IMG/VR virus record: IMGVR_UViG_3300002098_000034
Location: 3,186-67,185 of that record
Length of the DNA stretch: 64,000 nt
Reading direction: 5' to 3' (one strand)
DNA from: a virus
Taxonomy: Duplodnaviria > Caudoviricetes
The position numbers were made by a program, and so were the translations under genes. The notes beneath the pieces are model-generated. The model searched no databases. It saw only the letters and a program-made list of their open reading frames with translations, and was not told where the DNA came from. Positions 2,377-42,661 of this stretch are shown one piece after another; within the stretch, counting starts at the first letter, position 1; each line of letters starts with the position of its first letter.

Positions 2377-3381
2377 TTAAGTACTTGGATAAGTGTTTGC
2401 TATTTTAGGTGTTTCTGTTATGTTGGTGGTATATGTATACAAAGTGTTGGCATTAGCATTGGAAGGATTAGGAGTAATCACAATTTGTGCATAATTCATT
2501 GGTTGTAATTGATATGATGTAAACAAATAGTTTGCACTTGTACTCACACCAATAACAGGTTGCGAAGAAACAAAATTACCATTAATGTTGGTAAGTGTTA
2601 ATAGATTGTTTGACCAAAGAACTACCTTGGCCGTAGCCGTTGCTGATTTAACAGAATACCCTTGATAAACAACTTCACCGTCTTGATATGTTCCAACTCC
2701 TGTATTACCCATAGTAAACACAACAGAATCAGCAGCAGTAATATCATTGAGAATATTTGTAATTGATGTTTTAATTAAACCTGCCGTAGAGATTTGGCCA
2801 AACACATATCCTTTGACCGTGAAATTTAATGTCCATACAATCATTCTAGGATCAGTATCTCTAGGACCTTCATAAGAAACTTCAGAAGTAACTGAATTTA
2901 ATACGACAGGTATTTCTTTAACTACACCCATTTCAGGAACTAAATTTAATTTGATTGTGTAGTCTGGTGTAAAATAAGGAAGTATGTGTTCAATTATTTG
3001 AGTACCATCTTCAATGTTACGAACATAGATACACAAATCAAAATCAAAGTTATATGGTACTGGATTGTATTGAGAAACAACACCATTGGTTGTTTGAGCA
3101 AATGATTTGAAATTAGTATTCTGTTTTCTTGATGCATCGTATGTAAGACCATTCATTTCAAACGACATACGGGGTAAAGTCATTTGAGTTTTTTTATCTA
3201 AATTATAATCACCTTGTAAACGCTGAACATACAACTCTTTAGCTGCATAAGCAATTGGAACAATAAATCGTTGTGCTTCTGATTCATCCGGATTATATCG
3301 AACTAGTGTGATATCATTGAATAAGTTTCCAAATCCAACAACGAGTTTACGAACAATTCGATTATAGGTGGTATTAGCCAT
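2377..3381 (-). CDS. gp15: Tail sheath stabilizer/terminator
   Basis: RKLVVGFGNLFNDI...VPIAYA..KE, TLPRMSFE, QIIEHILPYFTP motifs; synteny. Confidence 0.92.
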   Translation of the reverse strand: MANTTYNRIVRKLVVGFGNLFNDITLVRYNPDESEAQRFIVPIAYAAKELYVQRLQGDYNLDKKTQMTLPRMSFEMNGLTYDASRKQNTNFKSFAQTTNGVVSQYNPVPYNFDFDLCIYVRNIEDGTQIIEHILPYFTPDYTIKLNLVPEMGVVKEIPVVLNSVTSEVSYEGPRDTDPRMIVWTLNFTVKGYVFGQISTAGLIKTSITNILNDITAADSVVFTMGNTGVGTYQDGEVVYQGYSVKSATATAKVVLWSNNLLTLTNINGNFVSSQPVIGVSTSANYLFTSYQLQPMNYAQIVITPNPSNANANTLYTYTTNITETPKIANTYPST

Positions 3382-37923: not shown

Positions 37924-38550
37924 ATGGCATACGAATCTAAACTTACACAATTAGCACAACAACGATCCGCTATGGATCAAGCGATCCTTTCCAGAGAATC
38001 AATGAAATGGTTAAAAGATAAAATTGATGAGATTCGGAACCCATCATCCATTCCTAGAGGTATCTCACAAGAAGCCTTTCGGAAAGATAAGAAATTTCTT
38101 TTAGGTCGTTTATATTGTTTTTATTATGATCCATTGGGTAAGGCAGAAATGCCATATTATGACCGTTTTCCTATGGTTCTGGCACTGGAGAAGTATAATG
38201 ATGGTTTCCTAGGTCTAAACCTTCATTATTTACCATATAAGTACAGACTGGCATTCCTGAGCAAACTCATGTCCTATGCGGTCCTAAACGATGATAATGA
38301 TGTGATGAAAGTCCGTATCACTTATGATATTCTGAACGCCTCCAAGCGTTTTAAAGAGTTCAGGCCATGTATTAAGCGCTACTTGACTAGCCAGATTAAG
38401 TCAAAAGTACTTGCCATTCAGCCATCTGAGTGGGAAATTGCTTCATTCTTGCCAATCCAGCAGTTTAAAGGTGCCAAACCTAAAGAAGTCTGGGAAGAAT
38501 CAGTCAACACGATTAAAGATGCCAATAAAACTTTTGGTTCAATATCTTAA
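37924..38550 (+). CDS. gp2: DNA end protector
   Basis: GRLY.FYYDP....MPYYDRFPMV, GLNLHYLP...R, PC.KRYL..; likely start ATG 37924. Confidence 0.93.
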   Translation: MAYESKLTQLAQQRSAMDQAILSRESMKWLKDKIDEIRNPSSIPRGISQEAFRKDKKFLLGRLYCFYYDPLGKAEMPYYDRFPMVLALEKYNDGFLGLNLHYLPYKYRLAFLSKLMSYAVLNDDNDVMKVRITYDILNASKRFKEFRPCIKRYLTSQIKSKVLAIQPSEWEIASFLPIQQFKGAKPKEVWEESVNTIKDANKTFGSIS

Positions 38551-38562
38551 AGGAAGAATTAA

Positions 38563-39168
38563 ATGTCCGGTAGTATAAGCGATTTCAAATCGTCATTTTC
38601 AAAAGATGTAGCTCGAACAAGTCGGTTCGATGTAAATATTGCCACACCTTTGGTATTGATACCTTATGTTTCGACTGCAAAAAACTTAACTTATCGGTGT
38701 GACTCTGCTCAGTTACCGGGAAGAACTTTTGCTACGGCTGAACAAAAAATTGGATCTAATCCAGTTGAAAAATATCCCTATCTTACAACCTACAATGATA
38801 TAGATTTAACTTTTATTCTTACTGATGATATGAATGAAAAGGTCTTTTTTGATAATTGGATGGAATTGATTAATCCTTCATATAGTTTTAATTATCAATA
38901 TAAGAGTGAATACGCAACCGTTATTACAATCAACCAATATGATGTAACTAATACTTTAACATATCAAGTAGATTTATTTGATGCTTATCCTATTTCTATA
39001 AATCAATTGGACTTAGATTGGTCATCGGAAGGGTTCCATAAATTATCAGTAACATTTGCATATACTCGTTGGCAGAACAATTCTTTACAGAATTTGGGTC
39101 AGCGTTTGGGTCAGCAACTTATCACCTCAGTTGTCGGTGGAATTTTTGGTGGTGCACCAGGTTTTTAA
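38563..39168 (+). CDS. gp54: Tail-tube initiator / gp19-fold protein (gp54-like)
   Basis: ARTSRFDV, CDSAQLPGR, F.NWM.LI, L.DAYP.SI..L.LDW, VTFAY..W. Confidence 0.75.
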   Translation: MSGSISDFKSSFSKDVARTSRFDVNIATPLVLIPYVSTAKNLTYRCDSAQLPGRTFATAEQKIGSNPVEKYPYLTTYNDIDLTFILTDDMNEKVFFDNWMELINPSYSFNYQYKSEYATVITINQYDVTNTLTYQVDLFDAYPISINQLDLDWSSEGFHKLSVTFAYTRWQNNSLQNLGQRLGQQLITSVVGGIFGGAPGF

Positions 39169-39195
39169 TTAATGATTTTATTATAGGAGTTAATC

Positions 39196-39921
39196 ATGGC
39201 TTTACCAAAGTTAGATGTACCAACATATGAAATTGAATTGCCAGTTTCAAAAAAGAAGATTAAATATAGACCATTTTTGGTCAAGGAACAAAGAAATTTG
39301 CTGATGGCCATGGAATCGAGTGATGCATCTTCGATCCAACAAGCAGTAAGAGATATTCTTCACAATTGTACCTTAACAGAAGGTATTGATGTAGAGAAAT
39401 TGCCTATTATTGATATAGAGTTTTACTTTATTAATCTCCGTGCCAAATCGGTGGGTGAGGTTATAGAATCACGATACAAGTGCAACAATGAAGTAGAAGG
39501 CAAAGAGTGTGGTAATGTTATGACCTCAGAAATTGATTTGACTGAGATTAAAGTCACACAAGAAAAAGAAGTTTCTTCAGAGATTCAATTGGATGATAAA
39601 ATTGCCATCAAATTGAAATATCCTGAGTTTCACATCATTGGAGATTCTTTAAATTACGATAACATCAATGAAGTTACTTTTAATATGATTGCTGAAAGTA
39701 TTGAATACATTTATGATGGTAGTCAGTTCTACTATGCACATGAGGCACAACCAGGTGAATGGTTGACCTTTGTTGAAGGTATGAACCAAGAACAATTTGC
39801 TAAAGTAGAAGAATTCTTTAATAATCTACCTAAGTTAAAAAAGAATATCGATCTGACTTGCAGTAAGTGCGGTTTTCAACATCACATTGAGGTTGAAGGC
39901 CTTGAAAGTTTTTTCGGCTAA
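39196..39921 (+). CDS. gp26: Baseplate hub assembly protein
   Basis: MALPKLDVPTYE.ELP.S.K.IKYRPFLVKE, L...DIE.YFI.LRAKSVGE, C.KCG, EGLESFF. Confidence 0.93.
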   Translation: MALPKLDVPTYEIELPVSKKKIKYRPFLVKEQRNLLMAMESSDASSIQQAVRDILHNCTLTEGIDVEKLPIIDIEFYFINLRAKSVGEVIESRYKCNNEVEGKECGNVMTSEIDLTEIKVTQEKEVSSEIQLDDKIAIKLKYPEFHIIGDSLNYDNINEVTFNMIAESIEYIYDGSQFYYAHEAQPGEWLTFVEGMNQEQFAKVEEFFNNLPKLKKNIDLTCSKCGFQHHIEVEGLESFFG

Positions 39922-40103
39922 CATTTCGTCATGACAATTTAAAGAATTATTATACAACAAACTTTTCGTTGATGCAACACCATAAGTATAGTTTGTTTGA
40001 ACTTGAGAGTATGATACCTTGGGAAAGGGATATTTACGTTTCCCTACTCATACAGTACATTGAAGAAGAAAACGCTAAGATAAAAGAACGACAGAGGAAG
40101 TAA
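39918..40103 (+). CDS. gp51: Baseplate hub assembly catalyst gp51-like frame, probably reached by -1 frameshift from gp26
   Basis: LTFRHDNLKNYYTTNFSLMQHHKYSLFELESMIPWERDIYVSLLIQYIEEEN; no start codon before the conserved N-terminal part; stop overlaps next ATG (TAATG). Confidence 0.85.
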   Translation, partial: LTFRHDNLKNYYTTNFSLMQHHKYSLFELESMIPWERDIYVSLLIQYIEEENAKIKERQRK

Positions 40104-41500
40104 TGTCCGTATTGGGAGCTATTGCTAAGGCAGTAAAAAACACCGGCAAAGATTTGCTGTTGGCTCTGCTTGGCGGTACAGGTAAGAATAAAGTACCAAA
40201 AGGTCAAGCAAATGAACCTATTGATACTGATGCTTTATCCAAATCCACTCAAGTATTAGGAATGATCTACAAAACGATGCAACGAGCTCGTGAAGATCAA
40301 ATTTCTCAGATGGAAATAGCAAAGAATTTTGATAAAACAAAAGAAAGTGATGAAGAAGATAGAAACAATGAGTTAATCAAGGCACTCACCCTCAAAAGAA
40401 AACCTAAGAAAAAAGAACCACCTAAAAAGGAACCACCCAAAGAAGAAAAGCCTAAGCCTACTACCAAAAAGGATGAAGGTAAAGGAAAACCTACAGAAGC
40501 AAAACCAACCAAAACTACTGAAAAGCCTGCTGAAAAACCTACAGCAGAAAAAGTAACACCCAAAGAAACTCCTAAAGTTCCAGAAAAAAAGGTTACAGAA
40601 GTAAAACCTGAAGCACCAAAGGCACCAGAAAAAGCACCAACACCAACAACACCAAAACCATCAGCAACAAAAGCACCAGGAATTGGAGAAAAAGTTGCTA
40701 TTGGTGTTGCTGGTGGTGCAGCAGCTGCAGGGGCTGGCGTTGTTATTGCAGCTCTAACTGAAGCCGGTCTTTCCAAAAAAGCACAAGCTAATATATTAGC
40801 ACAAGTTAAAGCTGAATCTGATTTTAAACCAAAAAGTGAAAACTTGAATTATACAAAAGCTGAAGGTATTCAAAACACATTTGGCAAAAATCGTATACCT
40901 ACATTAGAATTTGCTCAATCGCTTGTGAGTAAACCAGAAGAATTAGCTAATCATGTTTATGCCAAAACTGACGGCAATTCGGAACCGGGTGATGGGTGGA
41001 AATATCGAGGTAGAGGATTTATACAAATTACTGGAAAAAATGCATATAAAGCTTTGAGTAAATATTTGCAAATGCCTGAATTATTATCAAATCCGGATTT
41101 ATTAAATACTCCAGCAATTGCAGCTAAATCAATTCCATGGTTTTTCTTATCATATAAAGGAAAAAAACCAGAGCAATTGGAAAATATAACAACAGTCAAT
41201 AAAGCGGTTGGTTTTGCAGATAAAAGATTAAAATCTGGTGAAATGGAATCTGAACATAGAGCAAAACTAGCGGAAGAATATTCAAAACAACCTCCAGCAA
41301 GCCAAGCATCTACAGCAGCACCTACAACCGGTACTCAAATAGACCAAGCATCTAAAGAAAACAAAGATATGAAGAAGGCTGCCGATGTGAAGCAGCAGAT
41401 TAATGTAAATAATAATAGTTCGACACAAAACCAGTCCACTACCAGTCAACCGGCAGCTGCTGATGATTATGACGATAGAAACCCACATCAGAAGAAATAA
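40103..41500 (+). CDS. Hub/tape-measure-like protein with GH19 lytic glycosidase domain
   Basis: Lys/Pro/Glu-rich linker then AQVKAES....ENLNY, GN...GDGWKYRGRGFIQITGK.NY-like GH19 motifs. Confidence 0.8.
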   Translation: MSVLGAIAKAVKNTGKDLLLALLGGTGKNKVPKGQANEPIDTDALSKSTQVLGMIYKTMQRAREDQISQMEIAKNFDKTKESDEEDRNNELIKALTLKRKPKKKEPPKKEPPKEEKPKPTTKKDEGKGKPTEAKPTKTTEKPAEKPTAEKVTPKETPKVPEKKVTEVKPEAPKAPEKAPTPTTPKPSATKAPGIGEKVAIGVAGGAAAAGAGVVIAALTEAGLSKKAQANILAQVKAESDFKPKSENLNYTKAEGIQNTFGKNRIPTLEFAQSLVSKPEELANHVYAKTDGNSEPGDGWKYRGRGFIQITGKNAYKALSKYLQMPELLSNPDLLNTPAIAAKSIPWFFLSYKGKKPEQLENITTVNKAVGFADKRLKSGEMESEHRAKLAEEYSKQPPASQASTAAPTTGTQIDQASKENKDMKKAADVKQQINVNNNSSTQNQSTTSQPAAADDYDDRNPHQKK

Positions 41501-41503
41501 CAA

Positions 41504-42661
41504 ATGGCTAAAATATCAGAACAAACAAAAGACGCTGTTGTTGAACTTACAGGCAAATTTTCCAAAGATTTTGTAAAAGTCGCTTCAGGTAAAAAAACTG
41601 CATCTAAACAAAAGGATGTTTCTTTTTCAGGTAAAGCAAAAGAAGTTAAATCTGACAGTAAAACTGCATCTAAAATTAAACCTTTGAAACAAGGTAATGA
41701 ACTTATCGATATGCTCCTGAAGATTTATAACTTCATGGATAAAAACTACAATGACGATAAACTGCGTAGAGAGCAAGAAAACAACTTCAAAGAAGAATCT
41801 CAAATGGAAGCAGGTAAGAGGCATGCTAGACTCTTAAAATCCATTGAGGATTTGAAAAAGAGTTTGAAGGTTGATAAAGGTACTGCAGAAGTTATTCCTG
41901 GTGATGATACTGGTGGCGGAAGTTTATTAGATACTATAGCAAGTGTATTCAATCTTGGCAAAACTGCATTAACCGCATTAGGTTGGCTGGGCGGATTAGT
42001 TGCCTCACCGTTAGGTGTAGGATTAATTGGCGCAGTTGTTGCCGGAACAGTTGGTGCTTGGATGGTTAAACAAATTGCAGCCGATCCACAGGCCGCATTA
42101 AGAGGTGAAGGTGGCATTGGTATGGCTGTTGCCGGCCTAGGATCCGAAGGACAAGGACCTAGTTATGATGAAGAACAAACAAGTAAAGAATTAACAAAGA
42201 AAGCAGAACAGGTAGATAAAAAAGGATTAAAAAAGGCTACACTGGAAGAACTGGAAGCAAAATTACAACAACAGACAGAATTTGGCCACGTTAAAACTCC
42301 TGAATTTGCTGAGTTAACAAAAGAAATAGCATTAAGAAAATCTGAGCAAGCTCCTGATCCGGCTGCACCTTCAGCATCACCATCCGCAGCACCAGCAGCT
42401 GCACCTTCAGCATCACCAGCCGCAGCACCAGCAGCTGCACCTTCCGTACCAGCTTCAGCAAAACTGAATTCTGTTCAAGCAGAAAATAATACTGCTAAGA
42501 TTGATGAGATGGCGGCACCACCAGAAGTTAACATTAATAATTCATCTACCACTTCTTCAACACAAAAACCTACTCCACAACCTAAGAAGAAACTTCCACC
42601 AGTCAGAAATCTGGAAGAAACATTCCAAAAAATGATTGTGTATTCTACAAGAGTCGTTTAA
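41504..42661 (+). CDS. Second hub/tape-measure-like protein
   Basis: Shares L.KIY..M...NF.E helix with 40103 ORF; Ala/Pro/Ser 36-nt repeats at ~42362-42443. Confidence 0.6.
   Translation: MAKISEQTKDAVVELTGKFSKDFVKVASGKKTASKQKDVSFSGKAKEVKSDSKTASKIKPLKQGNELIDMLLKIYNFMDKNYNDDKLRREQENNFKEESQMEAGKRHARLLKSIEDLKKSLKVDKGTAEVIPGDDTGGGSLLDTIASVFNLGKTALTALGWLGGLVASPLGVGLIGAVVAGTVGAWMVKQIAADPQAALRGEGGIGMAVAGLGSEGQGPSYDEEQTSKELTKKAEQVDKKGLKKATLEELEAKLQQQTEFGHVKTPEFAELTKEIALRKSEQAPDPAAPSASPSAAPAAAPSASPAAAPAAAPSVPASAKLNSVQAENNTAKIDEMAAPPEVNINNSSTTSSTQKPTPQPKKKLPPVRNLEETFQKMIVYSTRVV

Follow-up and report, generated by a model that had tools for sequence, protein, structure and literature searches.

The 64,000-nt stretch of DNA analyzed here (hereafter, the window) covers positions 3,186 to 67,185 of the IMG/VR virus record IMGVR_UViG_3300002098_000034 (Duplodnaviria; Caudoviricetes). 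[quoted passage not shown] All window features for which coordinates are given lie on the plus strand. The gene at the position equivalent to that of the tube-like gene is annotated as gp54 or tail tube in phages nt-1, phiM7, and Ah1. On the other side, the chaperone gene is followed by a gene for a 465-aa protein with a GH19/lysozyme-like domain (40103..41500; PF00182, 1.6e-6; phrog_181, 2.5e-37; and a weak tape measure match, phrog_9570, 0.0022) and by a gene for a 385-aa protein (41504..42661) that yielded no Pfam or PHROG match. The latter protein shows an ESM Atlas feature match of 0.88 to a cluster containing PF25671 T4_Tape_measure, where 0.9 is the level above which such a match counts as more than a lead. 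Together, these two proteins are candidate leads for the tape measure role. The initial annotation placed the locus just upstream of tape-measure-like genes; the upstream neighbor is a tube-like gene, and the identity of the downstream genes as tape measure, judging by the phrog_9570 and Atlas matches, is a lead.

The 3' end of the gp26-like ORF reads GAA AGT TTT TTC GGC TAA, and therefore contains the slippery heptamer T TTT TTC (39909..39915) in the X XXY YYZ phase of the gp26 frame, one codon ahead of the zero-frame stop codon TAA (39919..39921). The -1 frame is closed by a TGA codon (39903..39905) located one codon before the heptamer, and then stays open up to the TAA at 40101-40103, yielding an extension of 62 codons plus the stop (39915..40103) that corresponds to the 'gp51', or TAC-C, part. 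The conceptual long form consists of 240 + 62 = 302 aa, with the junction ...GLESFF/RLTFR.... The earliest TTG and ATG codons of the -1 frame in the window, at 39969 and 39972, lie 20-21 codons past the heptamer, and no purine-rich Shine-Dalgarno sequence was found upstream of them on inspection of the window sequence. The heptamer at the gp26 end, the closure and subsequent opening of the -1 frame, and the first potential starts without an obvious Shine-Dalgarno sequence had all been reported in the initial annotation, and every one of these coordinates is correct. The next gene begins with an ATG that overlaps the TAA of the -1 ORF (TAATG; window positions 40091-40105), with its own Shine-Dalgarno sequence, GAGGAAG, just upstream. 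The -1 ORF wholly fills the 182 nt that separate this gene from the gp26 stop.

The occurrence of the heptamer alone is not significant: TTTTTTC is found 25 times in the window, compared with 33 expected, in DNA of 35% G+C. The signal lies in its position and conservation. Nine nucleotides upstream of the heptamer, a GAAGG sequence (39895..39899) that is invariant in the clade of the window phage might act as a Shine-Dalgarno-like stimulator, but such a role in the RNA is inseparable from the coding constraint because the same bases encode a conserved Glu-Gly pair.

The 241-aa protein matches PF12322 with a score of 205 bits (Pfam gathering score cut-off, 24.5) over positions 2-218 of the 219 in the profile, and also matches phrog_150 ('baseplate hub'). 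The translation of the -1 frame (65 aa) matches phrog_634 ('baseplate hub assembly catalyst', that is, gp51; 1.4e-28), aligns with the final 47 positions (230-276) of the gp26/gp51 profile phrog_150, and is similar to residues 200-244 of T4-type gp51 (BLASTP, E 1e-6), in agreement with the gp51-like character originally assigned to this peptide. Across phage families, the -1 peptide is 36-66% identical, with 994 matches in the library searched. The long member would, by these comparisons, carry a gp51-type C-terminal extension, presumably joined covalently to the gp26-like part in the window phage.

We built an AlphaFold2 model of the 241-aa protein from a 60-sequence alignment (pLDDT 88.9, pTM 0.81) and compared it exhaustively with 48,161 PDB chains. 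The top three of these chains, all aligned to model residues 1-96, were 3KLU (YqbN; Z 7.2, rmsd 4.2 over 86 aligned residues), 3FGX (Z 7.1), and 2OB9 (Z 6.6); a Z of ~7 is moderate, and the first clearly unrelated match had a Z of 4.1. All three are solved structures of tail assembly chaperones (PMC9603447, citing Pell et al. 2013). A Foldseek search of the PDB with the same model gave nothing significant, the HK97 chaperone 2OB9 having the highest probability, 0.47, and a PDB sequence search with the family profile detected no match, that is, no solved structure for the PF12322 family, an outcome compatible with these proteins being missing from solved virions. By the structural comparison, the modeled N-domain of gp26 has the tail assembly chaperone fold and is the predicted counterpart of the spiral-forming domain of Pell et al. 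2013. Immediately after the three solved chaperones, in the fourth place, came PDB 5IR0 (Z 5.6), the ORF19 protein of a PICI-like element of Vibrio cholerae; this phage-satellite protein may have a chaperone-like fold as well.

Comparison with T4-type phages clarifies the relationship between the two parts. As the initial annotation stated for T4 itself, genes 26 and 51 are separate in T4-type genomes, which contain two PF12322 genes and no heptamer; in Mosigvirus moha, the genes for gp26 (208 aa) and gp51 (250 aa) are transcribed in divergent directions. T4-type gp51 consists of a PF12322 domain (4.6e-59 over residues 1-201) and an extension homologous to the -1 peptide of the window, and spans the whole phrog_150 profile, whereas T4-type gp26 ends at profile position 235. 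When the -1 shift is made conceptually in the window phage and in six further lineages, the resulting products (291-338 aa) are colinear with T4-type gp51 from end to end. In the alignment, the junction ...GLESFF RLTF... corresponds to ...ILEVF KLLV... of T4-type gp51, and T4-type gp26 ends at the junction, with ...GLKEFFELL. The Phe-Phe pair of Tevenvirinae gp26 is encoded by GAA TTC TTT or TTC TTC, which is not slippery. A complete Tevenvirinae genome contains two PF12322 genes; a complete 161.8-kb genome of a relative of the window phage, a KVP40-like genome, and an Ackermannviridae genome contain one each, and a single such gene is present in the record of the window, a 40%-complete fragment. 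Thus, the long form is either encoded by a second gene, as in T4, or, in all other sampled phages, could be reached only by a -1 shift.

A megablast search of the phage collection with the region 38500-41600 gave no match, and relatives were found at the protein level. We distinguish the freshwater clade that includes the window phage (hereafter, the window clade) from a marine clade of cyanophage-type relatives that are 35-40% identical to the window protein. Altogether, about 140 distinct relatives, which represent at least seven lineages, all carry the heptamer NNT TTT TTY. All 80 IMG/VR relatives at 71-82% identity contain NNT TTT TTC, with a stop after one further codon, and the same signal is present in 79 of the 80 marine relatives, the exception being locus L150 (see below). 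Among the distinct gp26 sequences of both clades, NNT TTT TTC occurs in 134 of 134, with the Phe codons always TTT TTC; the residue preceding Phe-Phe varies (Ser, AGT or TCT; Ala, GCT; Asn, AAT; Asp, GAT), but the third base of its codon is always T. A second conserved Phe-Phe pair, ~35 residues upstream in gp26, served as an internal control and is encoded by TTC TTT, TTT TTT, TTT TTC, or TTC TTC, with any base before it. The distance from the heptamer to the stop is exactly one sense codon in 49 of the 49 distinct window-clade junctions and in 75 of the 76 from the marine clade.

Outside these clades, T TTT TTY is found in Vibrio phage nt-1, two KVP40-like genomes, Sinorhizobium phage phiM7, Methylophilales phage Melnitz, Pseudomonas phage pf16, S-CRM01, Nitratidesulfovibrio phage SRB7757, Aeromonas phage Ah1, and Stenotrophomonas phage Moby. 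Four of these, phiM7, pf16, SRB7757, and S-CRM01, are richer in G+C and prefer TTC elsewhere (45 TTC vs 19 TTT) but keep the heptamer. The T4-type and KVP40-type clades are thinly sampled because IMG/VR scans with the respective gp26 sequences gave only 5 and 2 loci. In the comparison of junctions that had been proposed as a check, the heptamer is conserved in phase in 134 of 134 sequences plus eight further lineages.

Taken together, these features make it very probable that a programmed -1 ribosomal frameshift on T TTT TTC yields a 302-aa long chaperone alongside the 241-aa short form. Under this scenario, the gene at 39196-39921 would be translated into the short, gp26-type chaperone of 241 aa, whereas a minority of the ribosomes reading AGU UUU UUC would slip back one base at U UUU UUC (39909-39915); the two tRNA-Phe molecules would re-pair with UUU UUU, and the -1 frame would be translated for 62 more codons, up to 40103. 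The product would be the 302-aa long form, and its C-terminal part is what annotations usually list as a small 'gp51' gene of its own. These two chaperone forms would be the counterparts of lambda G and GT, represented in T4 by the paralogous gp26 (short) and gp51 (long). The -1 ORF overlaps the 3' end of the gp26-like ORF and lacks a conserved start of its own, as expected of a G/GT-type pair. All the sequence-level predictions of the frameshift originally proposed for this locus hold, namely, the heptamer, its phase, the lack of a conserved start, and conservation that begins at the slip site; the proposed G/GT equivalence likewise gains support from the chaperone-fold match, the tail-tube-like gene upstream, and the T4-type gp51 architecture of the shifted product. 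We infer the ribosomal nature of the slip, its efficiency, and its role in tail assembly. One point against the ribosomal slip is that re-pairing of the tRNA with UUU rather than UUC replaces a G:C by a G:U pair.

The same 302-aa protein could, in principle, also be produced by transcriptional slippage, whereby RNA polymerase inserts an additional U at the T run such that a minority of the mRNAs encode the long form in a single frame; we consider this possibility improbable. The site is, indeed, a homopolymer run (T6 in most phages, including 134 of 134 sequences of the two clades; T7 in phiM7 and pf16; T8 in Melnitz), and an identical protein product is expected. Efficient slippage by bacterial RNA polymerase requires runs of about 8-9 bases. 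The run in the window is only T6, shorter than at sites of the Thermus dnaX or Shigella mxiE type, and never exceeds T6 in the 134 AT-rich sequences, although the Arg codon CGN in the -1 frame explains that restriction too. Furthermore, the Ackermannviridae retain the arrangement with only ATTTTC, a T4 run. In the 20 loci of this family (L181-L200 and L091), GAR ATT TTC ATT TAA is conserved ~12 nt before the gp26 stop, and a homologous gp51-like peptide is encoded in the -1 frame (phrog_634, 0.0026; phrog_9633, for which no function is annotated). Because only U UUC of the heptamer is retained, the slip site of these phages may be non-canonical or less efficient.

RNA structure also bears on the choice between the ribosome and the polymerase. 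No downstream stimulatory structure was predicted in the window (z +1.85) or its clade (mean z +1.06 over 33 junctions), which is compatible with polymerase slippage; the stimulator in this clade is, therefore, either lacking or of another kind. In the marine clade, 44 of the 69 distinct junctions fold significantly (z below -2), and most of the relatives share an 11-bp hairpin that starts 5 nt after the heptamer (for example, L111:1908-1964). In this hairpin, 79% of the cells are paired vs 24-46% in slid controls, and one pair covaries (U-A in 28, G-C in 14, and A-U in 13 sequences), with a covariation score that was reached by none of 500 shuffles; the covarying pair joins the third (wobble) position of an Ala codon to position 2 of a Val, Glu, or Ala codon. 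The hairpin is absent from the freshwater clade of the window and from a P-SSM4-like subclade; strong hairpins are likewise predicted for S-WAM1, pf16, Ah1, phiM7, and KVP40-like phages. A heptamer followed by a 5-nt spacer and a hairpin is the classic geometry of a ribosomal frameshift stimulator, and the covarying marine hairpin at this spacing favours a predicted ribosomal over polymerase slippage in the hairpin-bearing lineages. For the window clade, this distinction would turn on the shortness of the T6 run alone.

Under a second alternative, which we regard as very unlikely, gp51 would be a free peptide of 44-62 aa translated independently, either from an internal start (39969/39972) or by termination-reinitiation after the gp26 stop. 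The peptide is annotated in this manner in most GenBank records, and in 53 of the 76 marine junctions, an ATG lies 5 codons after the heptamer. The position of the start is, nevertheless, not conserved across lineages. In none of the 49 window-clade junctions is there an ATG within 20 codons, the first one being located at least 20 codons past the heptamer in all 49, and no Shine-Dalgarno sequence precedes 39969. The marine AUG at codon +5, used as the gp51 start in GenBank records, sits within the stem of the conserved hairpin. SRB7757 encompasses a gp51-like -1 ORF of 59 codons (L089:1504-1683) that contains no ATG, GTG, or TTG, and accordingly, cannot be initiated conventionally. The conserved stretch of the peptide (FFRLxFRHDNL...) extends as far as the heptamer and precedes every potential start, in line with the initial annotation, in which the conserved N-terminal part of the peptide was noted to have no ATG or GTG start; conservation begins exactly at the slip site. 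In 544 of 550 phage records, the tblastn match of the -1 peptide starts at its residue 1 or 2, within the part of the locus annotated as the end of gp26. Among the 49 distinct window-clade junctions, 32 have a -1 frame that is open for just a single codon ahead of the heptamer, and in Melnitz and three marine loci, a stop codon of this frame directly abuts the heptamer on the upstream side. Finally, in T4-type gp51, the corresponding segment is covalently joined to a gp26-like body.

Gene callers place the start of the -1 peptide at many different positions, and in hundreds of GenBank and metagenome records, including that of the window, 'gp51, baseplate hub assembly catalyst' is called as a free gene of 45-80 aa with an arbitrary start. 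Given the programmed frameshift favored here, the annotated small 'gp51' probably forms the C-terminus of a long chaperone produced by the frameshift, and the practical value of the finding lies in annotation.

The notion that the -1 ORF is an unexpressed remnant or a chance feature, with the heptamer simply reflecting AT-rich Phe-Phe coding, has a negligible probability: although TTTTTTC is common in the window and even the T4 gp26 protein keeps Phe-Phe, it is contradicted by the conservation of the -1 peptide across phage families, by codons that are fixed at the slip site but free at the internal control motif, and by the non-slippery codons with which T4-type gp26 retains its Phe-Phe.

In the single marine exception, L150 (IMGVR_UViG_3300049043_000112, a complete genome of 236 kb; L150:1201-2091), the sequence lacks two bases precisely where the heptamer would lie (TCT TTT TGG TTA GGA ATG), and the two parts form a single in-frame 297-aa gp26-gp51 fusion; there is no second PF12322 gene in this genome. 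An exact-pattern scan for the fused junction in other contigs retrieved only L150 itself, and because no other contig shares it, the fusion is uncorroborated and may reflect an assembly error. Either this phage produces the long form alone, or its sequence results from such an error; if the sequence is real, the short form is dispensable in this phage. The data show that gene duplication can take the place of the recoding site, as in T4; a hard-wired fusion possibly does so in L150.

The short/long chaperone arrangement of T4-like phages is already known, having been published in 2022, and the present finding is not new, whereas the initial annotation was not aware of a description. The relevant work is that of Vladimirov, Gautam and Davidson (Virology 2022; doi 10.1016/j.virol.2021.11.003), which we cite as it is represented in PMC12846349 and PMC10885494. 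According to the former, poly-T sequences are known -1 signals in the TAC-N genes of T4-like phages; in the summary given by the latter, instead of frameshifting, some T4-like phages have a short gene plus a second, longer gene in which the parts are fused. The phrase 'mechanism other than translational frameshifting' that goes with the 2022 work might weigh against a ribosomal slip, or might refer only to the two genes of T4. Already in a 2010 review of the T4 tail, gp26 and gp51 were listed as hub assembly chaperones. Because the idea was published in 2022, our results confirm that work and extend it slightly. It is rather unlikely, but conceivable, that part of the results goes beyond or against the 2022 paper in the following respects: the marine heptamer with its 5-nt spacer and covarying 11-bp hairpin would oppose any general denial of ribosomal frameshifting in T4-like phages; the freshwater clade, having lost the structure or never had it, could use a different stimulator; and the short form would be dispensable in L150, provided that the sequence is real.

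Compared with T4, the window phage has the same PF12322 family and the same predicted short/long pair, with the T4 long form being the short part fused to the downstream part, a relationship that our comparisons recover independently; T4 encodes the two in divergently transcribed paralogous genes without a heptamer, whereas the window phage has one gene and a putative recoding site. The slippery heptamer of lambda is G GGA AAG, unlike the U UUU UUC of the window phage. The slip site of T7 gene 10 is G GUU UUC; the 10A/10B pair thus resembles the window locus in being a bacterial-phage -1 shift on a poly-U/UUC site, but involves a capsid gene rather than a chaperone gene, and the upstream triplet of the heptamer differs. 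[quoted passage not shown] The differences are that the window gp26 is larger (241 aa), with an extra C-terminal part containing Cys pairs beyond the ~90-residue chaperone domain, that the extension is only 62 aa long, and that there is no detectable sequence similarity. For lambda G/GT and for the frameshift conserved in the tail chaperone genes of long-tailed phages, PMC12859696 cites Levin, Hendrix, Casjens 1993 and Xu, Hendrix, Duda 2004. The T7 10A/10B frameshift is mentioned in PMC12846349, which also describes a tail chaperone frameshift with an invariant GTTTTT motif in the Vandenendeviridae and Andersonviridae. As at the locus analyzed here, the short chaperone gene of these phages has a poly-T slip site at its 3' end, the ORF that follows is regularly mistaken in annotations for a hypothetical gene of its own, and the case is built on uninterrupted -1 frames in many genomes (PMC12846349); the protein family and the phage families are different from those of the window phage. 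Among metagenome gene calls, P0015, P0005, P0071, and P0103 join gp26-like and gp51-like sequences in one frame, some with an out-of-frame middle part, and may represent further hard-wired fusions or sequencing errors.
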